Source of the DNA: Fibrobacter succinogenes subsp. succinogenes S85
GTDB taxonomy: Bacteria > Fibrobacterota > Fibrobacteria > Fibrobacterales > Fibrobacteraceae
Length of the DNA: 32,000 bases
Direction: 5' to 3'
Assembly: GCF_000146505.1 (NCBI RefSeq)
Contig: NC_017448.1
Coordinates: 2,100,001 to 2,132,000 of the forward strand
Made by a program: the position numbers and the translations under genes. Each line of letters starts with the position of its first letter. Position 1 is the stretch's first letter. This document shows positions 3,165-15,987 of the stretch, one piece after another. Below the pieces are notes generated by a model that saw only the letters and a program-made list of their open reading frames with translations, did not search any database and was not told the DNA's origin.

Positions 3165-4238
3165 TCACTTTTTCCTCTGTTTCTTTTTCATTTCCGCCAT
3201 AGTGCGGTCAACAACCTCTCGCAACTTATATGTAGCCACACCCAACGGTTTGTTGATGTCTTTAAGCGACCATTCCACAACAGTCTTATCTGTCGATTTG
3301 CAAATAATCAAACCCACAGAAGGATTATCGCCTTCACCCCGAAGCAACTCATCTGCGGCAGTCACATAAAAATTAAGTTTACCAGCAAATTCCGGAGTGT
3401 ACTTCACGACCTTGAGATCTATAATGACATACCTGTGCTGTGGAATAAAATAAAAAATCAAGTCCGGGAAAAATGCTTGCCCGCCAGGCATCCGAAATTC
3501 CATCTGACGCCCAACATAGGAAAATCCTTTGCCCAGCTCCAATAAAAACTGAGTAACGTTGGCAATAAGAGCATCTTCTAAATCACCTTCATCATACTTT
3601 TCTTTCATTTTCAGAAATTCAAAATGATAAGGATCCTTCAGAATTTCCTTTGCAAGTTTCTCCTGAGAGGATGTCAAAGTTTTTTTGAAATTGGTAACAG
3701 CGGTTCCCTTCGTTTGAAAAAGATTAGCATCTATATATGCATTTAAAGTGGGGCGCGACCAACCATTATCCACTACACCCTTGACATAAAACAGGGCCTC
3801 GTCTATTGATCGGCATCGAGAAACAATGTCTATATGTTGTCCCCACGGAATTTTACCAAAAGCCTTGGGCATTTCTAATTGGCCAACGGCCCGTTGGCCT
3901 TTTTTATTTCGCTCAAAATAGAACAAATACCACTGTTTCATATACTTCACATTCGTGAAAGAAAAACCAGTCTCATTAGGGAAAGAATGACGCATATCAA
4001 GCGCAAATTGTTTTACAACTCCAGCGCCCCAACGTTCTTCGGCTCGCAACGCAACTAAATCACGACCAATTCCCCAATATAACTCTAACATTTCGGTATT
4101 CACGCGAATGGAAGCTTTCACCTGGCTCTGGCGAAAACGGTTTTTAACATCGGACAACCATTCAACATAACTGCTATCAGCCAACATACCATCGCGAAAT
4201 ACAAACATCGGTTTACTCATAGACTCTTTCTTTTTCAT
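3165..4238 (-). CDS. DUF1016 / YhcG-like PD-(D/E)xK nuclease family protein
   Basis: N-terminal ...YVEWLSDVKNRFRQSQVKASIRVNTEMLELYWGIGRDL... and C-terminal nuclease core FFPDLIFYFIPQHRYVIIDLKVVKYTPEFAGKLNFYV (D...D-L-K). I place the start at ATG 4236-4238, which is preceded by GGGGAGG. The track ORF extends to 4361. Confidence 0.8.
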   Translation of the reverse strand: MKKKESMSKPMFVFRDGMLADSSYVEWLSDVKNRFRQSQVKASIRVNTEMLELYWGIGRDLVALRAEERWGAGVVKQFALDMRHSFPNETGFSFTNVKYMKQWYLFYFERNKKGQRAVGQLEMPKAFGKIPWGQHIDIVSRCRSIDEALFYVKGVVDNGWSRPTLNAYIDANLFQTKGTAVTNFKKTLTSSQEKLAKEILKDPYHFEFLKMKEKYDEGDLEDALIANVTQFLLELGKGFSYVGRQMEFRMPGGQAFFPDLIFYFIPQHRYVIIDLKVVKYTPEFAGKLNFYVTAADELLRGEGDNPSVGLIICKSTDKTVVEWSLKDINKPLGVATYKLREVVDRTMAEMKKKQRKK

Positions 4239-4239
4239 T

Positions 4240-4350
4240 TTAGACCTCCCCAATTTCTTCTTTCGAGAACCAGTTGCCCTTAATATCCAGCCATTCATAT
4301 TCATGGGGAAGAGAGAGCAAATTCCTGATAAGATCTTCGGATTTTGCCAT
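4240..4350 (-). pseudogene. 36-codon remnant resembling the N-terminus of an AlbA_2/Schlafen-type putative DNA-binding protein
   Basis: MAKSEDLIRNLLSLPHEYEWLDIKGNWFSKEEIGEV-stop, with a GGAGG RBS at 4355-4359. The pattern (E.EwLefK.n...eeIGe) matches how AlbA_2-domain proteins begin. The stop at 4240-4242 abuts the DUF1016 start. Confidence 0.35.
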
Positions 4351-4420
4351 AAAGCCTCCATATGGCCGCAAATAGCGACCGGTTAATGTTAGAGGCGTTC
4401 TTGCGAAATCAAAAAGTTGA

Positions 4421-4462
4421 TAAAAGCAAAAACGCACCTCGCCTTTGTACAGCGAGATGCGT
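4421..4462 (-). terminator. rho-independent terminator (minus strand) closing the hsd-linked gene string
   Basis: Arms at 4432-4442 and 4452-4462 (11 bp). The only imperfect position is a G-U wobble in minus-strand RNA but a C-A mismatch in plus-strand RNA. On the minus strand the stem is followed by TTTTGCTTTTA (4421-4431). Confidence 0.6.
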
Positions 4463-4764
4463 CGGCTTTTAATGTACCTAATATCGAAAAAACTGGCAAG
4501 GGGAGCAGAAAAATTTTACAAAGAGCGTTCACTTACTCATTTCATTCATCTTCATGATGCATTGAAGGCAAGCCCTTGATATACGCTGATTACAATCCTA
4601 TATTTAGACTATCTCGTCTGCAAATGTAGAAGGAGTTCATGAAGACGTTCCATCCTGTGGAGCGTCTTCTGCATTTTGGAGATGAAAGCACACAGTGACA
4701 ATTTCTTCGCACCTTGCGGAATAATTACACAACAGATTTTTCATCTAAATCTTTGCTTTCGGTT

Positions 4765-4941
4765 TCAGTAGTTCAGAAATTCTGAACAGCAAATCATGTT
4801 GAGGTATAGAAAAAATTCAAGATTCAAAAGTCTTTGACTTTCTTGCTGAATCTGTCGGAAATCCCGACAAGTTGAACATCCATCCAGTTTACCCTTTTCA
4901 TAAATGTCCTTTATATGCTCAACAACATAGGTTTTAGACAT
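4765..4941 (-). pseudogene. RhuM-family gene fragment (middle part only, degenerate)
   Basis: MSKTYVVEHIKDIYEKGKLDGCSTCRDFRQIQQE... parallels the RhuM segment ITKHLKNIYAAQELDEKTTCSVLE... seen at 16021-16515. The following LEFFLYLNMICCSEF looks like a decayed YNLDMIISVGYRV. Its ATG overlaps the stop of the upstream gene (TAATG). Confidence 0.35.
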
Positions 4942-5318
4942 TAGTACCAATAGTCGTTCTCATCGTAATCCTCAATCCAAGTTTTGACCTGATCCGGCGA
5001 GGCCTTGATGGATTTTTTCAGTTCCCGATTCAATTCACCTATCTTAAGTTCGAGATATTCCTTAAAATCTTCCTCGCCATAATCTCCAGCTTCCAAATAA
5101 TCTATGCATTTGGCGTAGATATATGCAGTACGCAGAACCTTGTACGCCTTTTTAAAAATGGCCAAAGTTTCTTTTGAATAAGGTCTAAAGCACTTCCATT
5201 TTTGGGTCTGAACGAATTCAATCCATTCCTTACTTTTATGTTTCAAGTAAGTCCGCCGTACATAATCGGCCATCCCCTCAATACGCGATTCATGATAGTT
5301 AAATGTTCCACCAGACAT
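4941..5318 (-). CDS. hypothetical protein (125 aa), acidic C-terminus
   Basis: ATG 5316-5318 is preceded by AAGGAG (5325-5330). The protein reads MSGGTFNYHESRIEGMADYV...CIDYLEAGDYGEEDFKEYL...DYDENDYWY. No family recognised. AT-rich. Confidence 0.55.
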   Translation of the reverse strand: MSGGTFNYHESRIEGMADYVRRTYLKHKSKEWIEFVQTQKWKCFRPYSKETLAIFKKAYKVLRTAYIYAKCIDYLEAGDYGEEDFKEYLELKIGELNRELKKSIKASPDQVKTWIEDYDENDYWY

Positions 5319-5564
5319 TGCATTCTCCTTGATTGTATTTTTCAAAGTTTTATATTCACCTTTAAAATACGCTCATCGCCATGCAAGCGCAAGAGGTCGC
5401 GTTGTTGCCACGAAATGGGTATTGTAGCCTTGATGTTGTATTTTGTCGGGTTTTATGTTGCCAAACCCATTTTTCATCACCTGTTCTCTGGGCAATCTCT
5501 GGGCAATTTCAGCAAAAAATGTTTGAAGTATCTTTTTTGGGGCAGGCGGTAACAGTGACTAACT

Positions 5565-7493
5565 TCATTTTCCAAAATATTTCAAGCAGAATTCCTCATT
5601 CACTTTAACAACAATCATTATAAAAACTTTTAGGGTTTCAATATATGCCTGTTGCAGCTCTTCTTCTGATCCAAAGAAAGATCCATGCAGAAAGGTATTG
5701 CGCAAATCTAAGCTGTTTGAGAATTCTTTCTTGTTCAACACAAAATTATAGTAATCGCGTTCTTGGCGAGAAAATATAGTTGATTCAACTTCAACTTCTT
5801 CTTTTTCTACTAGCTCTTTTAATATTTCCTTTTGCTTACCCTTTTGATGAGCAAAACAAACAACCTCATTCTCATACAGGTTATATAAAAGAGAACATCT
5901 ATCGATATCTATCCCTAGACTATTATCGGCTTCTAAAAGTAAAGCCCCTCTTTCTATCAACCATTTTATCCAAACTCTTGCCTGCTCTGCAAAATCAGTT
6001 ATGAAAAGATGTTCTTTGGCAATTATCTCTACTAGAGAGTTATACCCGCTCCAAGCAAAGTTCATTCCAAACAACAGGTTAAAGGAAAAAAGGAACCGCA
6101 TTTCTTTTTTAAGACTTTCCCCTTTAACATAAGCATATTTCTGTTTTAAAAAACTCTTCAATTCTCCTATACGGACAGGATTAGAAGAAATAGCCACAAG
6201 TTCCTTATCAACGCAACCGTCTTCCATATAATATTTCAGTTGCTTAAGGATTCCGTCCATCTCAATATAAAGTAGTTTTATCCGTTCCGACAACGATACT
6301 GATTTTGACGGTTTCTTGAATTCAAAATCAGAAATACCAAAATTCTCTTTTAGATAATCACCAAAGAAATAATCAAACAAATCTTCAATGCAAATCCCGT
6401 AATTTTCAAGCTCTTCCTTATATGTAGATAAAATCTTATAGTAAATCATCCTATTTTTTGTAAATTGCGAGCGTATAGGATAATGCTTTATTCCCTCACT
6501 TTCTGCAAGCAATTCATCTATTATACTTTTCTTTTTCAATACAAATTGACAACGCAGTTCCGAATCAAAGAAACCAAACAGGAAAATAAAGTTATTAAGT
6601 AGTGTCGGGAAATCGTGATGTTCCCTTACCCATTTCTTGCTGTATGTGCAATAGACATGATGGTCTGTTTCATTATACGATTCATTCTTTTCTTCATCTA
6701 TTTCCTTGAACGAGGCAATGCATCCATAAGAAAAAGACGATCTTTCTGAAAAATGCTTTTCCCAATATTTCTCCTTGGCCTTTTTAGCCTTTAATCGCAG
6801 CCTATCATCAATATTAAGCCCCGGTATTATAGGAGCATTTTCTATCAATTCCAAATAGTTCGGATGCGGTTCAAACGCCCCATCAACATAATAATTAAGG
6901 ACGCTTATTTTCTTTTCTTCGGTCAAAACCTTGGGAAATACGATGCTTTCTTTTTCTGCAAAATCTTTTACCAAGTAGTATTTGATGATTATTTCAGCAG
7001 CATCCTTATTGTCCATCATATAATCAGTTATTACCTGATTGTATTTTTTCACCCATCCTTTACATTCTAAGATACAAAACAAGGGAATCAACTTTTTATT
7101 TAGCAGATTTTGAACGCCGGAATTGGGAATGTTTTTCAACAAGTCAAAACGTTCTAATAATTTCAGCAGGTCTAACGAATAATATGTCCATATGCTCTGG
7201 AAAATATTTTCAATATCGCTTAAATCCAGTTGCTGAAAATAAGAAGAAACAAAACGGGATATCGCATCCGTTTCCTTTCTATACTCATTAAATTTTTCAG
7301 GCGTAATATTTGTTGGGCAATCAATGGACTTTACAATCTGAACGATGTTTGATAATTCTATAACTTGATTTAGGTCATAATTATTTGATGAATCAAAGGA
7401 ATCCAAAATGGGTATTGCCCTTTGGAACATGTGGTACTGATGTAGCACCGAGCGTTTATTGAATGTTATATGCTCAAGGAAATCTTTGGTCAT
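5565..7493 (-). CDS. large hypothetical protein (642 aa) with C-terminal HEPN-like R-N-x-x-x-H motif
   Basis: Uninterrupted 1929-nt ORF in very AT-rich DNA. The C-terminus is ...FSRQERDYYNFVLNKKEFSNSLDLRNTFLHGSFFGSEEELQQAYIETLKVFIMIVVKVNEEF. R598 is encoded at 5700-5702 and H603 at 5685-5687. I saw no Walker A motif, and the first ~560 aa are unassigned. Confidence 0.75.
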   Translation of the reverse strand: MTKDFLEHITFNKRSVLHQYHMFQRAIPILDSFDSSNNYDLNQVIELSNIVQIVKSIDCPTNITPEKFNEYRKETDAISRFVSSYFQQLDLSDIENIFQSIWTYYSLDLLKLLERFDLLKNIPNSGVQNLLNKKLIPLFCILECKGWVKKYNQVITDYMMDNKDAAEIIIKYYLVKDFAEKESIVFPKVLTEEKKISVLNYYVDGAFEPHPNYLELIENAPIIPGLNIDDRLRLKAKKAKEKYWEKHFSERSSFSYGCIASFKEIDEEKNESYNETDHHVYCTYSKKWVREHHDFPTLLNNFIFLFGFFDSELRCQFVLKKKSIIDELLAESEGIKHYPIRSQFTKNRMIYYKILSTYKEELENYGICIEDLFDYFFGDYLKENFGISDFEFKKPSKSVSLSERIKLLYIEMDGILKQLKYYMEDGCVDKELVAISSNPVRIGELKSFLKQKYAYVKGESLKKEMRFLFSFNLLFGMNFAWSGYNSLVEIIAKEHLFITDFAEQARVWIKWLIERGALLLEADNSLGIDIDRCSLLYNLYENEVVCFAHQKGKQKEILKELVEKEEVEVESTIFSRQERDYYNFVLNKKEFSNSLDLRNTFLHGSFFGSEEELQQAYIETLKVFIMIVVKVNEEFCLKYFGK

Positions 7494-7504
7494 TTATATA
7501 TGAG

Positions 7505-8071
7505 TCAATACAGGTTTTTATTTCGAACTTTTTTGTACTTGATTCCTTTTTCAGTTCTTTCTGCACTAAATTCAGAAATATCATCTGAACTAATGAAATC
7601 TATATAGTTCAACCAATCTTTCATTGTCACATGATATAAGCATTTATCACAATTTTCATCCGAAGAAACGCAAAATCCTTCAATACTCTTGTCGTCATTG
7701 TAAGTCAATTCAAAAATTACAGAATGTATCAGCCTATTACAAACATCTGTACCCTGTTTTGTTTGCCTTCTAGACGATTCCCAATTATGACTATCTTCGG
7801 AAATCCAATGATGCATATTATCAAAATACTTTTTAGATTCAAATATTTCCACTTTCAGTGCATAACAATCTGCTTCATCACTCAATTTAGTCTTACAATC
7901 CACCAATTTTCGAATTACAAACGCGGAATAGAAAATACTTTTCTCTAGAATTGAATAAGCATTATCCGAATCATCATCGTCATTTTGAAAATATTTTGAT
8001 GAACCATATTCAATTATTTTATCACGATAAGATAACAAATCTTCTTTCCATGGACCTGATTCAAAAATCAT
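7505..8071 (-). CDS. hypothetical protein (188 aa)
   Basis: ATG 8069-8071 is preceded by GGGAG (8079-8083). The track ORF starts at GTG 8119. The stop lies 11 nt before the 642-aa gene. It contains FYSAFVIRKLVDC and VCNRLIHSVIF (N-x-x-x-H without the Arg). No family recognised. Confidence 0.6.
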   Translation of the reverse strand: MIFESGPWKEDLLSYRDKIIEYGSSKYFQNDDDDSDNAYSILEKSIFYSAFVIRKLVDCKTKLSDEADCYALKVEIFESKKYFDNMHHWISEDSHNWESSRRQTKQGTDVCNRLIHSVIFELTYNDDKSIEGFCVSSDENCDKCLYHVTMKDWLNYIDFISSDDISEFSAERTEKGIKYKKVRNKNLY

Positions 8072-8181
8072 AATTAAACTCCCAAATGCTTTACTTTCGT
8101 CCGCTTGTTTCTTGCCCACAATTTCGGCGACTCTCGTTCAAAAAAATTATTTCCAAAGAGTCCTAGGGATAATTAAGCACT

Positions 8182-8220
8182 AATTTGGACACTTTGCTTA
8201 GCAAGGTGTCCAAATTTTTT
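8182..8220. terminator. 11-bp perfect stem-loop in the 173-nt gap between the two gene pairs
   Basis: AATTTGGACAC (8182-8192), a 13-nt loop, then GTGTCCAAATT (8206-8216). The T-run (8215-8220) follows the stem on the plus strand. On the minus strand an A-run precedes it, so its function as a minus-strand terminator is uncertain. Confidence 0.35.
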
Positions 8221-8244
8221 AGCTAGAATGTTTCCTCTCTACAC

Positions 8245-8766
8245 TCAATATGACCTAATATAACTTATAAAAGGATCCATCAAAGCGTAAAGACTAGAAA
8301 AATCAAGGATTCTCCCATTTCGCAGAACCCAGTAACGACCATGAGCCAGCCAGTGCCTATATTTAAAGACTCGTTTAATTTCGCTCATATACCCATTTCT
8401 GTAGGCACCTACATTTTGCCATGTAGACAATATATGTTCTTCTAGACTTGCTTTACGAGGATCTGGAAGACCCAAAGATCTCATAGCTCGCGATACTGGA
8501 TCTTTTAATTTTTTCCCCAATCGATTAAGATAATCAACTCTGCAAGACGCTTCTACGCAAGATAGCAAATCTAATGAAAAAAGCTTCTCCAATTCATCCC
8601 TACTTTCGTCAAATTCCTGTTCAAATTCCTGCCTAGTATAGGAAATAAATCTTGGATTAGTCGTCTGATAATAATCGTTAAGTGCATCCATTGAAACTTG
8701 GTATTTTTCTCTCACATACGCGAGAGACACGTTCTGATTAGAAAAACTAACGCTAATCCTGGCCAT
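8245..8766 (-). CDS. hypothetical protein (173 aa) with HEPN-like Rx4H motif
   Basis: ...EIKRVFKYRHWLAHGRYWVLRNG..., with R137 at 8356-8358 and H142 at 8341-8343. The start ATG 8764-8766 overlaps the upstream gene by 14 nt. Confidence 0.65.
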   Translation of the reverse strand: MARISVSFSNQNVSLAYVREKYQVSMDALNDYYQTTNPRFISYTRQEFEQEFDESRDELEKLFSLDLLSCVEASCRVDYLNRLGKKLKDPVSRAMRSLGLPDPRKASLEEHILSTWQNVGAYRNGYMSEIKRVFKYRHWLAHGRYWVLRNGRILDFSSLYALMDPFISYIRSY

Positions 8767-9268
8767 TTACAAGTTCCATAATAACATTTTGGATGCTATC
8801 TTCAGTAACGTCAATAAAATTTCTGTTATCGGGTGCAACAAAACGCCAAACCCACTGATCTTCAGGAGCAGTACCATTGTTTAAATCAGAAGGAATTTTT
8901 CCTTGTATAGAGAAATTTTTTCTCATTAAAATGATTTTCGCAAAACCCTTTGGACCTTCCATTCTTACGCGACCTTTAGAAGCGATAAGCATCGTTCCTT
9001 CAGGTTTTAACTGTATATGGATTGTATTTAGTTTTAAAGTGAGCCGAGGGACTTCGTATGTGCCAAGAGATTCCTCATTTATTTGAATGTTGTCTCTTTC
9101 AACTTGAATTTGTCCATTTTTCACATAGGGAAGCAACGATCCTTCAAAAATACTGTACAATTGATTAAGATAACTTCTATACTCCTCAATCTCTTTCTGA
9201 GGATCAAATTTTACCTCTGGATCCCCTTTTTGCGCATTGAGTTCATTTAAAAATTTTGCAAAATTCAT
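8753..9268 (-). CDS. hypothetical protein (171 aa), first gene after hsdS
   Basis: ATG 9266-9268 is preceded by AAGGAG (9274-9279). The track ORF starts further upstream at 9313. The protein reads MNFAKFLNELNAQKGDPEVKFDPQKEIEEYRSYLNQLY...LKPEGTMLIASKGRVRMEGPKGF... No family recognised. Confidence 0.6.
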   Translation of the reverse strand: MNFAKFLNELNAQKGDPEVKFDPQKEIEEYRSYLNQLYSIFEGSLLPYVKNGQIQVERDNIQINEESLGTYEVPRLTLKLNTIHIQLKPEGTMLIASKGRVRMEGPKGFAKIILMRKNFSIQGKIPSDLNNGTAPEDQWVWRFVAPDNRNFIDVTEDSIQNVIMELVNGQD

Positions 9269-9349
9269 TTTGACTCCTTTTTTATAATTTAGTTTTTTCT
9301 GATTTTCGTTCATTCATACACATTTTAACAACCATTTTTTCTAAAAATA

Positions 9350-10576
9350 TCAAACACTAATTTCGCCATTCATGATTTTGGGGAGTAGCCGATTGCGGGA
9401 TTCCGCTGCTAATTGAATTTGATCTTCCAACTTTTCAATTTTGGAAATCATAGAAGCAAATACATTATCGTACATTTCAACAATACTTTTTTCAGGGCAA
9501 AGAACTTCTATATCCGCCATATTTTCGGGTCTTAAATGAAGAACATTCGCTCCGTTTGCGAGAGGAGAAATTTTATAACTTAATCCCCCAAATCGGCATT
9601 GAGCGTAAAAAAATGTTTTGGAAATTGTTTTGGGCAATATTTTTAACAGGTCCATTGTGAAAATAGCACATTCTTTTAAATTAGGTATTAACGCGACATG
9701 TCCTACCAAACGACGTTCTTTCGTCATATCAGTACATCCCATGACCAAGTCGCCGGACTCTAAAATTCCGTTTTCTTTGTACTTACCTGTAAATCGTTTT
9801 TCCGCATTGCGCTTATAACCACCAAAAGCGTTGATGTTTTTTAGATTAACCAACAAAACGCCTTCGTTATCACTTAATTCATTTGATGTGTAAGAAGTTC
9901 CACGAACGTAATCCACAACATCACCAAGTTTCTCTTTCCACCATCCCTGAGGCAGTCCATCAACGATGGGGGTGGTTTCGTAGCCGGGGAATTTAAGGTC
10001 GATGAACCATTGTTTGTAGAGGCGTTGGGCGGCTTCTTCGAGGAGTTTGATTTGCTTCTGGTTGTTTTCAATCAGATCATCGTATGCGGAAAGGATGTCG
10101 GCTATTCGTTTTTGAGTTTCTTTATTAGGAATATTTATTTCCATATTCCTTAACGCAGTCAAGCTCACGGTTCTCTGAGCAGCACCAACAGCAACAGCAT
10201 CCGCCATCATATAAAAATCATTACTCAGCATCTTGTAATACAAGTATCGCGAATAAATTTTTGATTCGTCAGGACGCAAAATTGCAATATGCCGCTGAAA
10301 TACAAAGGGACTATCGTCTTTTATAAATACAGGCTTTCCAAAAGATCCAACAACAGAATAAAGAATATCATTTACTTTTGGTTTTCTTTTTTCATCAAGA
10401 GAATCATAATACTCTTGCGGAACAAACATCGTATTAGTAAAATCAAATTGATTCGCAGAAGTTATATTCGATATCGTTACAAACGGAATACCACAATCAG
10501 CTTTGGGTGGTGGCAAATGATCTCCATCCGCGATTGAAACGCATACATCTCCTAATTTCACTTTTTCCCAAGCCAT
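9350..10576 (-). CDS. hsdS: type I restriction-modification specificity subunit
   Basis: Two-TRD layout with the conserved central helix ADILSAYDDLIENNQKQIKLLEEAAQRLYKQWFIDLKFPGYE and the C-terminal helix IEKLEDQIQLAAESRNRLLPKIMNGE. Confidence 0.9.
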   Translation of the reverse strand: MAWEKVKLGDVCVSIADGDHLPPPKADCGIPFVTISNITSANQFDFTNTMFVPQEYYDSLDEKRKPKVNDILYSVVGSFGKPVFIKDDSPFVFQRHIAILRPDESKIYSRYLYYKMLSNDFYMMADAVAVGAAQRTVSLTALRNMEINIPNKETQKRIADILSAYDDLIENNQKQIKLLEEAAQRLYKQWFIDLKFPGYETTPIVDGLPQGWWKEKLGDVVDYVRGTSYTSNELSDNEGVLLVNLKNINAFGGYKRNAEKRFTGKYKENGILESGDLVMGCTDMTKERRLVGHVALIPNLKECAIFTMDLLKILPKTISKTFFYAQCRFGGLSYKISPLANGANVLHLRPENMADIEVLCPEKSIVEMYDNVFASMISKIEKLEDQIQLAAESRNRLLPKIMNGEISV

Positions 10577-10593
10577 CAGAGAATAACCTCCAT

Positions 10594-10694
10594 GGATCCT
10601 TTGCGTTGCTCAGGATGACATAATGACAAGGAGATTCCCGCCTTTGCGGGAATGACAAGTCGTGTGGATTCTATCGCTTCGCTCCAGAATGACA
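10594..10694. repeat. three tandem REP-like palindromic units between hsdM and hsdS
   Basis: Units are at 10594-10620 (ggatcctttgcgttgctcaggatgaca), 10631-10657 (gagattcccgcctttgcgggaatgaca) and 10666-10694 (ggattctatcgcttcgctccagaatgaca). Each can fold into a hairpin and each ends in (A/G)(A/G)ATGACA. An extra ATGACA lies at 10623-10628. Confidence 0.6.
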
Positions 10695-10718
10695 CATTTC
10701 TCTGTCTTTCATCTAATC

Positions 10719-12593
10719 TCATATCCCCAACTCCTTCATGTTCTTGGAGATGGTTTTCATGAGCGTGTTACTTTCGTCCTGGAGTTTCAGGAGTTCTTCG
10801 TGGATTTCATGCATGCGTTCGGCAAAGTCCACGCCGTCATCTTCAACGGGGGCAACGCCTACATAGGCTCCGGGAGTAAGGCTAAAGTTCTTTTCAGCAA
10901 TTTCGGCACGGGTTGCGATTTTGCAAAGACCAAGAATGTCCTTGTATTTTCCGTCACCGAACTTTTCATAGAGCCAATCGGCTTCTTTCGCCACATTCAA
11001 GATTTCATCAAATTCTGCAAGACGCGTGTCCCATTCTTCCTGAGTCTTTTTCTTGCTCTTCTTATCGGCAGCATCTACAGATGCTTTTGCTTCGGCTCGA
11101 AGCGTTTCGCGATATTCCTTGAGCAATTCTACTTGCTTTGCAATCTTGGATGTCTTGCGGAGAATCTTTTCAAGGTTGGCATCATCGGTTTCATCGGCGT
11201 AAGAAAGAAGCGTTGTGCGGTATTCTGCAAGCAAGCTTTGATACTTGTCAAGTTCTCCACGATAAAGCCATACAATAGCGTTCAAGTTTTTCAGTTGCCA
11301 TTCGCTCCATTCATTCAAGGTGCGATCCACAACAGTGTAGTAATTGCGGGCATCAATAAAAAGAACTTTGTCCTTAATATTCTTCTTTTTGCACTTGTCA
11401 AAGAACCACAGGGTGCAAGGCAAACTCTTGGTGTAAAAGAAGTTGTTGCCAACGCTTATCATGCAGTCCACATGACCTGTCGCCACGAGTTTTTCGCGGA
11501 TATCTTTGTCCTTGCTCTGACTATCCGTCGCAGAGGCTGCCATCACAAAGCCCGCACGACCTTTTTCGTTCAGGTAGCTATAGAAATAAGAAATCCAAAG
11601 GTAGTTGCCATTGCCGATTTCTTTATCCTTGTTGACGGCAGGCAAACCAAACGGCAGTCGCCCCGCACTTTGACAACTTTCTGCCTTAACCTTATCCACA
11701 TTGAACGGTGGATTCGCCATCACATAATCGCACTGCCCCGTCAAATTATGTGCATCGTGATAGAAGGAGTTCGCTTCGTCGCCAGACTTGACAACTCCGG
11801 TAAGGCCATGCACAGCCATGTTCATCAAGCAAAGTTGAGCATTGTATTCCACCTTTTCTTGGCCGTAAAAAGTCATAGTCTCGTTGCTAGCCATCCCGGC
11901 AGCATTCACAAAATCACCCGTCTGCACGAACATGCCACCACTTCCGCAAGCAGGATCCAAAAGCACACCATACGAAGGTTCTAGCACATTCACAATCATC
12001 TTCACCAATGATTTCGGGGTAAAGAAAACTCCGTCATCACTAGCAATATTCTTCGCAAACTTACTGAGGAAGTATTCGTAAATACGACCCATTACATCGC
12101 CGCCCACATCATCCAACGCATTGTTGTTGAAAGTGCGTAAAAGTTCAGCGAGAAGATTATCCTTAAAGTCGGTGTAGGTCTTAGGCAATACGCCCTTCAA
12201 TTTTTCGCTTTGAGCCTCGACTAGTTCCATGGCGTTATTCACCACTTCGCCAAGGCTGTTGAGCGGCTGACCATGCACATTCTTGAGTTTGGCAGAAGCA
12301 ATGTTCGCAGGCAAATTCACCAAATAATCAAACTGGGCTTCTTTGGGGAGGAACAAGGCGCTCTTCGAAACAAAGTCACTCGCCTCGATGGGGAGAACGC
12401 GACCGCCTCGACTCGGGCGATTTTTCAACAGTTCGGCTTCAACCTTTTTGAAGCGCCCATAGGCATAACGCAAAAACAACAGACCCAAAACAGGCATACA
12501 ATATTGATTCGAAGTCAACTTGGAATCGGCACGGAGTAAATCCGCAGATTCCCACAAATCCGCCTCAAGTTTCTTTAAGCTCTTATTATCCAT
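10719..12593 (-). CDS. hsdM: type I restriction-modification N6-adenine DNA methyltransferase subunit
   Basis: HsdM_N-like start MDNKSLKKLEADLWESADLLR, SAM motif LLDPACGSGGMF, catalytic NPPF (VMANPPFNV), and a long coiled C-terminal extension ending ...FSLTPGAYVG... Confidence 0.92.
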   Translation of the reverse strand: MDNKSLKKLEADLWESADLLRADSKLTSNQYCMPVLGLLFLRYAYGRFKKVEAELLKNRPSRGGRVLPIEASDFVSKSALFLPKEAQFDYLVNLPANIASAKLKNVHGQPLNSLGEVVNNAMELVEAQSEKLKGVLPKTYTDFKDNLLAELLRTFNNNALDDVGGDVMGRIYEYFLSKFAKNIASDDGVFFTPKSLVKMIVNVLEPSYGVLLDPACGSGGMFVQTGDFVNAAGMASNETMTFYGQEKVEYNAQLCLMNMAVHGLTGVVKSGDEANSFYHDAHNLTGQCDYVMANPPFNVDKVKAESCQSAGRLPFGLPAVNKDKEIGNGNYLWISYFYSYLNEKGRAGFVMAASATDSQSKDKDIREKLVATGHVDCMISVGNNFFYTKSLPCTLWFFDKCKKKNIKDKVLFIDARNYYTVVDRTLNEWSEWQLKNLNAIVWLYRGELDKYQSLLAEYRTTLLSYADETDDANLEKILRKTSKIAKQVELLKEYRETLRAEAKASVDAADKKSKKKTQEEWDTRLAEFDEILNVAKEADWLYEKFGDGKYKDILGLCKIATRAEIAEKNFSLTPGAYVGVAPVEDDGVDFAERMHEIHEELLKLQDESNTLMKTISKNMKELGI

Positions 12594-12624
12594 TTTGGTC
12601 CTTATAAAAATTTAAATGCAACCG

Positions 12625-15600
12625 TTACGCAACTTTGTAGTGGGTATAAACATACTCGTAAATACGCTGGCGGTATTCCGAAATAGAGAGCTCATCAAAG
12701 CTTTCAGGGAGTTCGCTCCATAGCGTATCGCGAATCAAGTTATCGACAGCAGCCTTTGTTTCTTGTTTGTCCGTCCAATGGTCAAATTCAGCAATTTTTG
12801 CTTTAACCTTTTGGAGCAAATCTACAGCCACTTCCTTAATCTTTTTAATGTCCTGCTTACTCAAATCATCTTTGAAGAGCATGTCGTAAAGCGAAAGTTC
12901 TTCGTCGTTCTTGAAGCCCTCACGTACATAGCGCTGTTCTTCCTCATTCATGCTTGCCGCAAGGTTCATCAAGTCCATGAATGTTTTTTCAATCGTTGCA
13001 CGATCCTGTTCGCTGTTGTAAGCCTCAATAATTTCGCGATAGCGGTCGTAATAATTGATGCGGAATGGATTCTGTGCAAGCATCACAGCCAAGCGATCCT
13101 TTATCAATTCTTCCAAATCGCGGAATAACAAATTTTGTCGTTTTGCCTTCGCAAATTCACGACGCAACAAATCAAAATCGATCTTGCTAATGTCGAATTG
13201 TTTAGACTTTTTCTTGTCATTCTTAACGACATCAACATACTCGTTCATAATCTGGTTCAGCTGAACCATCAAATCCACATTTGTCACATGGCGACGTTTA
13301 GTTTTCAAGTCGCGGGCAACCGCATCAATCGCTTTAAACTTCGCACGAATTTCACTTGTCACATCGTCGCGATTCGTGTATTTCATCAATCGCACAAGTT
13401 CTGCGGCATACGTGCTAAAAGTTTTCTTGTTTTCGAGCGTAGAGCAAACCGCATTTTCAACATCCTTGATTGCTGCAAGCTTATCAAAATTCTTAGACTC
13501 GATTATGCTCTTTAAATTCGCGTTGCAACCATCCAAGAAACTTTCTGCTTTAGCGACCACTTCCACAATGCGTTTTAAAAGCTCTTCTTTATCAATGGTA
13601 GGATCGTTACCGGAACCAGAAACCTTATTCGTGTAATCCGCAAGAGCCTTACGCAAAGCCTTCACAATACCTGCATAATCCACAATCAAGCCGTTGCTTT
13701 TGCCCTCATTCACACGATTTGCGCGGGCAATTGTTTGCATGAGAGTATGAGCCTTTAACAACTTGTCCAAATAAAGGCAACTAAGGCTCTTTACATCAAA
13801 ACCGGTAAGCCACATCGCACAGACAAAGACTATACGGAACTTGCTATTAGAATCCTTGAATTCCTTGTCAAGTTCGCGTTTTTCCATTTTCTTCCGATGC
13901 GGAACAATATCCAAGCCCCATTTTGCAAATGTCTGCTGTTCGTTCTGTTCGTCACTCACGACAACAGCCATCTCGGTTTCACGCATCCACTGGATTTTGC
14001 GATTCAGTTCTTGAGCCTCTTGCTGTGTAGCCTGCTTGCAAATAGATTCGAGGTTCTTGATTTCTTCTGCCCAATATTCCTGGGCGAAATTGAACATTCG
14101 AACACACGTGACCTTGTTTAGGCAAACAAACATTGCCTTTCCGCTAGTCCAAAGGTCGGAATAATGTTTGACAAAATCCTTTGCGACAGCACGCAAGCGG
14201 GGTTCAGCCGTAAGCAGGTGATATTCCTTAGCAAAATCCCTTTCCAGCTTTTCTTGGGCATCTGGGTCAAGGTCTGCTTTTTCGATGGCATCCAAAATCT
14301 TGTCCGAGATTTCAGGATTCTTTAGTTCCTTGATTTTATCGGCACGGTTTTCGTAATAGAGAGGGACCGTCGCACCATCTTCTACAGCACGCTTAAAATC
14401 GTAAATCGAAATGTAGCCGCCGAATGTGCGTTCGGTAATATTGTCGTCTTTTAAAAGCGGAGTACCCGTAAAGCCCAAACGAGAGGCATCGGGCAACAAG
14501 TTGCACATGTTTTCCGCAAAAATTCCGTTCTGGCTACGGTGTGCTTCATCCGACAAAATCAAAATATCATGATCAGGATGAATCGGCTCCAAATCCTTCT
14601 TGTTGAACTTTTGGATCAGCGTAAAGATGTAACTCGGATTAGCCTTTAGTTTTTTAATAAGGTCATTTCCGCTTGTAGCGATAAACTTGGATGCTTTTAC
14701 ACCGCCAAGCATTTTGCAATTTTCAAAAGTTTCACTGATTTGCTTGTTCAGTTCATCGCGATCGGTTAACACGACAATTGTCGGGGAACCGTCCGTACGG
14801 CGGCGAATTTTCTGCGAAAGGAAAAGCATCGAATAGCTTTTACCGCTCCCCTGCGTATGCCAAAACACACCAAGTTTACCTTTACGGAGTTTGCGGTTCT
14901 TATAAGCTTCAAAAGCCTCGTTCACGCCAAGATACTGATGATTCCTGGCAAGGATTTTTACCGTATGGCCATCGCTGTGGTCATAAAGGATAAAGTTTTC
15001 AAGCAAATCAATAAAGGTTTCTTTTCGGCAAATACCCTTGAGCATCGTAGCAAGAGCCACTGAACCAGCGTCGTCTTCTTTAAGGCGTTTCCATTCATGG
15101 AAAAATTCAAACTTGCTTCCGAGCGTTCCCACTTTTGCCTCAAAACCATTTGAGAGCATCAAGAAAGCATTGTAGTAGAACAGCTGCGGAATAGTCGACA
15201 GGTAATCGGTATAATTATCGTCGTAAGCATTTTGCACCGCCACATCGTTACGCTTGAGTTCGACAAACAAAAGCGGAATACCATTTACAAAACCAACAAT
15301 ATCCGTACGACGATGGTACAACTCGCCATGAATCTTCATCTCTTTCACGGCAAGGAAATCATTATTTGACGGATTGTTGAAATCAACTATCAACGCACGC
15401 TTTTCATCGACTTGGCCGTTCGGCTTTTTTATCGTCACCGGAATGCCATCGCGGATGAATCCGTACTTTTCTTCGTTGATTTGCAGAAGCGAAGAAGTGC
15501 TAAGCGTCGCTGTAAATTTTTGAACAGCCTCTTCAATCTGATTTTGGTTTATCCAAGGGTTCAATTTTTGAAGAGCTGCCTTAAAATAGCGAAGCAAAAG

Positions 15601-15747
15601 GACTTCGCGATACGACTTTCGCCCAAATGTGCCATTATCCCCAAGAACCTCAATATTATAGGCGAAAACAACACGCCAACCCAGCTCTTGCAGCAGGTTT
15701 CCGGCGCTCTCTTGAACAAGAATGTTTTCGCTATATTCGTAGGACAT
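12625..15747 (-). CDS. hsdR: type I restriction endonuclease/helicase subunit
   Basis: PD-(D/E)xK core (TDIVGFVNGIPLLFVELKRN), Walker A HTQGSGKS and DEAH box LILSDEAHRSQ. I place the start at ATG 15745-15747 (MSYEYSENILVQE...). The track ORF starts at TTG 15804. Confidence 0.92.
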   Translation of the reverse strand: MSYEYSENILVQESAGNLLQELGWRVVFAYNIEVLGDNGTFGRKSYREVLLLRYFKAALQKLNPWINQNQIEEAVQKFTATLSTSSLLQINEEKYGFIRDGIPVTIKKPNGQVDEKRALIVDFNNPSNNDFLAVKEMKIHGELYHRRTDIVGFVNGIPLLFVELKRNDVAVQNAYDDNYTDYLSTIPQLFYYNAFLMLSNGFEAKVGTLGSKFEFFHEWKRLKEDDAGSVALATMLKGICRKETFIDLLENFILYDHSDGHTVKILARNHQYLGVNEAFEAYKNRKLRKGKLGVFWHTQGSGKSYSMLFLSQKIRRRTDGSPTIVVLTDRDELNKQISETFENCKMLGGVKASKFIATSGNDLIKKLKANPSYIFTLIQKFNKKDLEPIHPDHDILILSDEAHRSQNGIFAENMCNLLPDASRLGFTGTPLLKDDNITERTFGGYISIYDFKRAVEDGATVPLYYENRADKIKELKNPEISDKILDAIEKADLDPDAQEKLERDFAKEYHLLTAEPRLRAVAKDFVKHYSDLWTSGKAMFVCLNKVTCVRMFNFAQEYWAEEIKNLESICKQATQQEAQELNRKIQWMRETEMAVVVSDEQNEQQTFAKWGLDIVPHRKKMEKRELDKEFKDSNSKFRIVFVCAMWLTGFDVKSLSCLYLDKLLKAHTLMQTIARANRVNEGKSNGLIVDYAGIVKALRKALADYTNKVSGSGNDPTIDKEELLKRIVEVVAKAESFLDGCNANLKSIIESKNFDKLAAIKDVENAVCSTLENKKTFSTYAAELVRLMKYTNRDDVTSEIRAKFKAIDAVARDLKTKRRHVTNVDLMVQLNQIMNEYVDVVKNDKKKSKQFDISKIDFDLLRREFAKAKRQNLLFRDLEELIKDRLAVMLAQNPFRINYYDRYREIIEAYNSEQDRATIEKTFMDLMNLAASMNEEEQRYVREGFKNDEELSLYDMLFKDDLSKQDIKKIKEVAVDLLQKVKAKIAEFDHWTDKQETKAAVDNLIRDTLWSELPESFDELSISEYRQRIYEYVYTHYKVA

Positions 15748-15767
15748 AATAATGGGCTTTTTTTGTA

Positions 15768-15797
15768 AATATAGCCTATTTTTATGCCAAATTACAA
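15768..15797 (-). promoter_or_regulatory. possible sigma70-type promoter for hsdR
   Basis: Read on the minus strand: TTGTAA (15792-15797), an 18-nt spacer, then TATATT (15768-15773), about 20 nt upstream of the hsdR ATG. This is a pattern match only. Confidence 0.3.
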
Positions 15798-15987
15798 CAA
15801 ACAAAAAGATTTAAAAGGTCAAAAGTCGAAACATTAAACCAAAGGGAATGCACAACAGTGCGTGGGTTGTTCGTACTACAAAAAACATTAATTTGGTAAT
15901 GCTTTCAGCGGACTTTAGCGAAAAATTCCCCAAATGTCACATTCTGTCACCGCAATAATTTAAATTGAATTTTGATTGTTTTAGTCT

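Follow-up and report, generated by a model that had tools for sequence, protein, structure and literature searches.

Two adjacent genes on the minus strand of the Fibrobacter succinogenes subsp. succinogenes S85 genome, one encoding a protein of 188 amino acids and the other, 11 nucleotides (nt) further downstream, a protein of 642 amino acids, are independently shuffled single-gene cassettes that share one hotspot. They lie in a stretch of 32,000 nt (contig NC_017448.1, positions 2,100,001 to 2,132,000; hereafter the window, in whose numbering all positions are given unless a locus is named), where a first-pass annotation, made from the letters of the DNA alone, had read them as an effector and its sensor or regulator. 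The explanation we favour, and consider probable, is that two independent cassettes stand side by side downstream of hsdS in a type I restriction-modification (R-M) operon. The large gene would be a stand-alone abortive-infection candidate of the PADLOC family PDC-S56 with a HEPN-type RNase site, and the small gene would be unrelated to it and not its dedicated partner.

The two open reading frames (ORFs) are as the first-pass annotation had described them, both on the minus strand. The large one occupies 5565..7493 and the small one 7505..8071, each from an ATG, and the 11-nt spacer between them (7494..7504) is also the junction of two independently shuffled blocks of DNA. A scan of species-representative genomes gave 80 loci with a homologue of the large gene, mostly in Clostridia and other Bacillota and in the Fibrobacter clade, and none of these 80 carries a small-family gene as judged by tblastn and hidden Markov model (HMM) searches. 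Similarly, a large-gene homologue was found at none of the 80 metagenome loci that were examined around a small-family gene. Synteny of the pair in other genomes, which the idea of a two-gene system implied, is thus absent from both sets, and even within Fibrobacter the genes are separable. The small gene is followed at 11 nt by the large gene in the window and also in two other contigs (L173 and L174), whose upstream context differs. In L084-L089 a gene of 273 amino acids stands between the two, in L003 and L175-L179 a gene of 273 or 280 amino acids precedes the large gene with no small gene present, in L001, L002 and L180 another gene does so, and in L081-L083 and L093-L096 the small gene occurs without the large one. 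In blastn comparisons, homology is interrupted at the gene borders, with one block for the small gene (8093..7496) and one for the large gene (7503..5564); at the spacer, the blocks across contigs end at 7496-7504 and begin at 7499-7503. Given the lack of co-occurrence in either set of 80 loci, the varied arrangements in Fibrobacter and the breaks of homology at gene borders, we conclude that the two genes are not a pair. Close spacing and a motif that resembles a known one are not enough to turn two neighbouring genes into a system.

The large protein is a member of the catalogued PADLOC family PDC-S56 and does not represent a new family. It matches the model PDLC05039 with residues 3-638 against profile positions 3-641 of 649 (E=4.5e-160, 532 bits), and the second PDC-S56 model, PDLC05038, with its C-terminal 85 amino acids only (residues 555-639, E=6e-24). 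The PDC catalogue comprises 145 candidates for phage defence, as yet untested, which were nominated for being embedded in type I RM, BREX or DISARM loci (Payne, Hughes, Fineran & Jackson, bioRxiv 10.1101/2024.01.29.577857). The large gene shares with PDC-S56 the full-length HMM match, the single-gene behaviour and the embedding in type I R-M loci, with no difference at the level of the family. We found 89 homologues of the large protein; identity between the Fibrobacter protein and those from outside Fibrobacter, which come mainly from Clostridia, is 25-39%. The gene is split into two ORFs in three genomes (L031, L048 and L054), which are probably frameshifted pseudogenes.

The motif that had drawn attention to the large protein, RNTFLH (an RNxxxH motif at the extreme C-terminus), is encoded by the codons for R598-H603 at 5685..5702 on the minus strand. 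Translation also places the two further motifs of the first-pass annotation where they had been reported, namely RSVLHQYH, a weak Rx6H motif, at residues 14-21 of the large protein, and CNRLIH at residues 111-116 of the small one (7724-7741). The chance level of such motifs was taken from shuffles of the same proteins: RNxxxH arises in 2.4% of shuffles of the 642-amino-acid protein and any Rx4-6H in 73%; for the small protein, NxxxH does so in 24%. RSVLHQYH is thus no more than chance would supply, and neither R14 nor H21 is conserved among 75 homologues; the second motif is not supported. Occurrence of the C-terminal RNxxxH is by itself only mildly unusual, and it is conservation that makes it meaningful. 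R598, N599 and H603, whose conservation had been named as a point to check, do not vary in any of 30 aligned homologues, with identities as low as 23%, and the same alignment keeps E578, Y581, K630 and N632 unchanged. All 75 full-length homologues from the species-representative genomes keep R598, N599 and H603 together with E578, N587, K630 and N632. The canonical motif at the C-terminus is therefore confirmed as a strictly conserved element in a helical region. E578 lies 20 residues upstream of R598, in the context E-x2-Y-x-N rather than the HEPN-typical Ex3[KR]. Invariant residues also occur in the N-terminal part of the protein (Y338, Y380 and Y453, with K452 and Y455 each in 74 of 75), as does a conserved D294-YPTLLNNF motif that also served as a search pattern for loci.

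The confident AlphaFold (AF2) model of the large protein is mostly helical (predicted local distance difference test score (pLDDT) 89.4, predicted template modelling score (pTM) 0.82). Its C-terminal end consists of a helix at 576-586, a short motif-bearing helix at 597-602 and a long helix at 610-638. These helices, the invariant residues, the PDLC05038 match and a sub-threshold DUF4209 match outline a putative HEPN-type RNase module of about residues 571-642 (5565..5783, minus strand, stop codon included). The DUF4209 match (Pfam) covers residues 548-621 with 15.3 bits (E=0.021), below the gathering threshold of 22.3 bits. DUF4209 is the only recurrent Pfam signal in the family, and a weak one (8 of 30 homologues at E<=1); the Pfam scan of the same number of homologues gave no match at E<=0.01. 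Adjoining the module, about residues 487-570 (5784..6035, minus strand) are modelled as two helix-helix-beta-hairpin units, with helices at 487-493 and 503-514, strands at 518-520 and 526-528, helices at 530-542 and 552-563, and a strand at 567-570; from the order of these elements they may resemble tandem winged-helix modules. The remaining N-terminal region of about 486 amino acids (6036..7493, minus strand) is mainly helical, has no match in Pfam, NCBIfam or PHROGs and no family assignment, and could be the sensor or regulatory part of the protein. The large protein carries no Walker A motif and no ATPase family of Pfam, NCBIfam or PADLOC, and no TPR, WD40 or transmembrane features were found in it.

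The HEPN fold was not confirmed by comparison with known structures, as Foldseek returned nothing below E=0.18 for the model against the PDB, and profile searches of PDB sequences with whole-family and C-terminal alignments produced noise only. A profile search from the last ~98 amino acids, of the kind that the first-pass annotation had recommended, retrieved only short pieces of the large-protein family, and none of these was annotated as PF13910. The unconfirmed fold is one reason to consider that the large protein could be a nucleic-acid-binding regulator, or have some other mobile-element function, with R-N-x3-H serving binding and not catalysis. The winged-helix-like units adjoin the motif, two homologues of 713 amino acids (P0042 and P0044) have HTH_24/HTH_11 matches in Pfam, which suggests a fused or extended DNA-binding domain, and non-catalytic HEPN proteins such as MtlR do exist (PMC3710099). 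However, non-catalytic HEPN domains are without Rx4-6H (PMC3710099), yet all 75 homologues here keep R, N and H; furthermore, the family is located in defence islands and R-M operons, and PADLOC lists it as a defence candidate. We therefore give a binding role in place of catalysis only a slim chance. That the large protein is an effector with a C-terminal HEPN-type site is supported by the invariance of the motif, the DUF4209 signal and the PDC-S56 match. This half of the original effector-and-regulator proposal stands as a qualified reading; the other half, in which the small protein is a regulatory partner, fails on fold and synteny.

We infer for the large protein an RNase activity, dimerisation, a sensor role of the N-terminal part and an anti-phage function, which may combine as follows. 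The C-terminal ~70 residues would form a HEPN-type, metal-independent RNase site from R598, N599 and H603 with E578, N587, K630 and N632. Since HEPN sites generally need two Rx4-6H motifs, the protein would most likely complete this site by forming a homodimer. The winged-helix-like units, together with the helical N-terminal region of ~480 amino acids, would sense an infection cue and hold the nuclease silent until then. Once activated, the protein would cut cellular or phage RNA and phage production would stop, making it a second line of defence beside R-M, similar to PrrC but without the ATPase. Some points weigh against the explanation by independent cassettes with a stand-alone effector. 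The recurrence of the same pair with 11-nt spacing in the second genomic context of L173 and L174 leaves room for a lineage-specific link; type I R-M genes were detected with narrow home-made HMMs, so that the R-M-linked fraction of large-gene loci is a lower bound; and the literature searched contained no mention of PDC-S56, no description of its function or domains and no experiment on it.

The surroundings of the large gene in other genomes bear on whether it depends on R-M. Among 79 species-level loci, the neighbouring genes fall into 88 singleton clusters and otherwise small groups, the largest being hsdS and hsdR, and the immediate neighbours are not conserved across loci. In eight loci the gene stands exactly between hsdS and hsdR, in the order hsdM-hsdS-large gene-hsdR, and type I R-M genes occur within 6 kb in at least 19 of the 79. 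Other neighbours include integrases (9), recombinases or resolvases, YhcG, GmrSD, Fic and nSTAND3, and several homologues adjoin integrases or are carried by Enterococcus plasmids, where recombinases and a TIR protein are their neighbours. PrrC/EcoprrI, an anticodon nuclease encoded within a type Ic R-M operon (PMC3710099), offers a model for a guard, in which HsdM, HsdS and HsdR would hold the large protein inactive until a phage anti-restriction protein disables the enzyme and releases it. The R-M-linked loci just described fit such a guard, as do the EcoprrI precedent and the proposal, made in the same paper, that R-M-linked HEPN proteins act in this manner. On the other hand, no type I gene was detected nearby in 60 of the 79 loci, the integrase-borne and plasmid-borne copies are hard to place in this model, the large gene does not lie between hsd genes in the window or in L173, and the protein has neither an ABC ATPase nor a Walker A motif. 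A guard of this type seems unlikely to us, and with no hsd genes detected near most homologues, we doubt that the R-M complex physically controls the family. The family behaves as a self-contained cassette that moves among type I R-M operons and integrase-borne islands. In three Lachnospiraceae loci, a YhcG-family gene stands beside the large gene and sits between hsdM and hsdS.

Several known systems can be set beside the large protein. Anantharaman et al. 2013 (PMC3710099) class DUF4209/C6orf70 (ERMARD-type) among the catalytically active HEPN families and place its bacterial members in R-M related operons. The large protein is like it in the C-terminal R-N-x3-H and the R-M setting, and differs in its score of 15.3 bits against 22.3, in the weak match of only eight in 30 homologues and in having no TPR, WD40 or transmembrane parts. 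With PrrC it shares a C-terminal HEPN-type RNase motif and a position inside or next to hsd genes, and may share the second-line logic of abortive infection. It differs from PrrC and RloC in being without an N-terminal ABC/Rad50-like ATPase, and in that most of its homologues have no detected hsd genes nearby. The best functional precedent is HEC-08, a DUF3644 HEPN protein embedded in Hma systems, whose defence was demonstrated by experiment and lost on mutating the motif histidine (bioRxiv 10.1101/2024.01.29.577857); as is proposed for the large protein, it is a single-gene embedded HEPN protein. However, HEC-08 belongs to another HEPN family, with the HEPN domain N-terminal and zinc-ribbon domains C-terminal, and no sequence relationship to it was detected. 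Finally, TgvAB is a GmrSD-like pair in the type I R-M operon of Vibrio cholerae VPI-2 that acts as an autonomous defence independent of HsdR (PMC11411939). It resembles the two Fibrobacter genes in its location inside or beside such an operon, and sets a precedent for HsdR-independent defence; it differs in being an obligate two-protein system that targets DNA, whereas no obligate link exists between the two genes described here, and RNA cleavage is the activity predicted. R-M operons have been known to contain HEPN proteins since 2013, and the large gene adds a copy of a catalogued candidate family to them. What the PDC-S56 candidate gains is a concrete, testable putative active site at R598, N599 and H603.

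The small protein belongs to a separate, unannotated family, with an alpha+beta fold, and is not a HEPN protein. A profile search of 1.84 billion representatives found at least 1027 clusters (50% identity) at E<=1e-3, and nearly all hits are stand-alone proteins of ~180-190 amino acids. Across 104 members with 22-41% identity, R54 and H116 are invariant, 62 residues apart, and S5, W8, K9, E43, K62, S117, S137 and D138 are nearly so. The family has no match in Pfam, PADLOC v2, NCBIfam or PHROGs, none of the 104 members matches a HEPN family of Pfam or PADLOC, and the small protein has no sequence match in the PDB. Its very confident AlphaFold model (pLDDT 95.5, pTM 0.90) has four main helices and seven strands, and Foldseek found no fold neighbour for it in the PDB or BFVD.

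The first-pass annotation had taken the small protein for a degenerate HEPN paralogue, so that the two genes would form a two-component system in which an inactive HEPN protein regulates or completes the HEPN site of the 642-amino-acid effector. The 11-nt spacing does suggest co-transcription and possibly translational coupling, the adjacent pair appears again in L173 and L174, and the CNxLIH pattern is conserved in the small family, with N112 present in at least 90% of close relatives beside the invariant H116. Nevertheless, the modelled alpha+beta fold is not an all-alpha bundle, the sequence contains no Rx4-6H motif, and hhalign gives the profiles of the small and large proteins a probability of 0.4% of being related. 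On the strength of the model and the unrelated profiles we reject the degenerate-HEPN reading of the small protein. In addition, no fusion of the two was found among the top 150 small-family hits, the genes do not co-occur in the two sets of loci, and in Fibrobacter they are found apart or split by the 273-amino-acid gene, so that a paralogous partnership is barely credible.

The metagenome loci show where the small gene is at home. It is preceded in many cases by hsdS, which is present in 50 of 77 small-gene loci and mostly just upstream. The typical order is hsdM-hsdS-(278-amino-acid gene)-small gene-hsdR, and other copies follow a type III-like mod/res pair. Dereplication at 80% identity leaves 24 lineages, 14 of them with type I genes, two with type III-like genes and five with an adjacent 278-amino-acid gene. 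In all 80 loci the small gene is closely followed, in the same orientation, by a gene for HsdR, a 338-amino-acid protein, a 278-amino-acid protein or an FRG protein. This regularity speaks for a link without paralogy, in which the small protein is a generic modulator (antitoxin-like, or controlling expression) of whichever gene lies directly downstream, here the HEPN protein; the absence of an obvious Shine-Dalgarno sequence before the large gene, which starts 11 nt after the stop codon of the small gene, points the same way. However, the genes downstream of the small gene are mutually unrelated, and hsdR itself is among them; such a gene is missing upstream of most large-gene homologues, which directly follow hsdS or an integrase; the invariant R54 and H116 look enzyme-like rather than like parts of a binding antidote; and a same-strand position is the rule for embedded genes (96.7%, Payne et al., bioRxiv 10.1101/2024.01.29.577857). 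We regard such a lineage-specific modulator as quite improbable. The invariant Arg/His pair rather suggests that the small protein is an enzyme, and its position suggests another embedded defence gene or R-M accessory. It may even be the more novel object of the two: a possibility that we raise tentatively is that it founds an undescribed R-M-embedded family, as a new single-gene defence enzyme or as an accessory or controller of restriction.

Both genes share their surroundings with a second unannotated family, of 273-281 amino acids. An I-R-H-N-N motif is invariant in it and an ExWYDxxYQ helix conserved; examples, all outside the window, are L084:6678-7499, L175:4164-4985, L003:5143-5985 and L172:3747-4583. 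In other Fibrobacter contigs its members stand directly upstream of the large gene, and in other taxa they adjoin the small-family gene inside type I R-M operons. No match was found for it in Pfam, PADLOC or the PDB, and its profile has no similarity to that of the large family. Hidden kinship between the genes that can precede the large gene (188, 273/280, 181 and 138 amino acids) was rejected after comparison: the only relatives among them are the 273- and 280-amino-acid proteins, which also belong with the 278-amino-acid family, and none of the 273/280-, 181- and 138-amino-acid proteins is related to the small family. Neither the small family nor the ~278-amino-acid family is described in the libraries searched for each; with neither in Pfam or PADLOC v2, these two unannotated R-M-embedded families are flagged as cheap candidates for a defence screen.

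The start codons of both genes can be placed with the help of homologues. The small ORF can also be read from a GTG (7505..8119, 204 amino acids). The ATG at 8071, which gives 188 amino acids, has the Shine-Dalgarno sequence GGGAG 7 nt upstream, DNA homology to other contigs begins ~22 nt upstream of it, and 15 of 17 close homologues are 182-190 amino acids long, mostly 188. An NCBI protein that is 100% identical to the large protein is annotated from M22, giving 621 amino acids. We favour the 642-amino-acid form, since alignments of distant homologues cover residues 1-21 (7431-7493, minus strand) and DNA homology begins 6-10 nt upstream of the ATG at 7493, regardless of which gene precedes it.

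The neighbourhood is encoded entirely on the minus strand, in the order hsdR, hsdM, hsdS, two ORFs of 186 and 173 amino acids, the small gene, the large gene, an ORF of 134 amino acids and a YhcG/DUF1016 gene. The type I R-M operon (9350..15804; Pfam Methylase_S, PADLOC MTase_I and REase_I, TIGR00348) is intact, with hsdR at 12625-15804 (TIGR00348), hsdM at 10719-12593 and hsdS at 9350-10576, and the small and large genes lie downstream on the same strand in a low-GC slot. The conserved far side of this slot (3165..5345) is made up of the 134-amino-acid ORF (4941-5345) and the gene of the YhcG/DUF1016 PDDEXK nuclease (3165-4361; Pfam YhcG_C and DUF1016_N). From 5351 to 2401 the window is 94% identical to L001 (L001:9931-12902), from another Fibrobacter genome with different genes in the slot. 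The borders of the hotspot are thus hsdS on one side and the 134-amino-acid and YhcG genes on the other. GC (guanine plus cytosine) content is 0.32-0.37 at about positions 5000-10000, coinciding with the variable slot, compared with about 0.5 in much of the remaining window. The low-GC slot, together with the occurrence of non-Fibrobacter homologues mostly in low-GC Clostridia, suggests that the large gene was horizontally acquired.

The 186- and 173-amino-acid ORFs (8245-9313, minus strand) overlap by 14 nt and directly follow hsdS; neither has a match in PADLOC, PHROGs or the PDB. The 173-amino-acid protein carries a C-terminal RHWLAH (Rx4H) and a weak match to HEPN_MAE_28990 (E=0.084), and for these reasons it is this ORF, and not the 188-amino-acid gene, that is plausibly the small HEPN gene of the locus. 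A relation of this putative HEPN protein to the C-terminal profile of the large protein was looked for with hhalign, and none was found. Between the 173- and 188-amino-acid genes lies a hairpin (8182-8216) formed by a near-perfect inverted repeat of 16-17 bp. It was considered as a recurrent element of cassette junctions and rejected as such, since the window contains it only once and none of the 183 loci compared has it. As sense RNA it has a predicted energy of -21.4 kcal/mol (z=-5.3), with a run of A upstream and modest U-content downstream, and it may be a terminator or stabiliser that separates transcription units.

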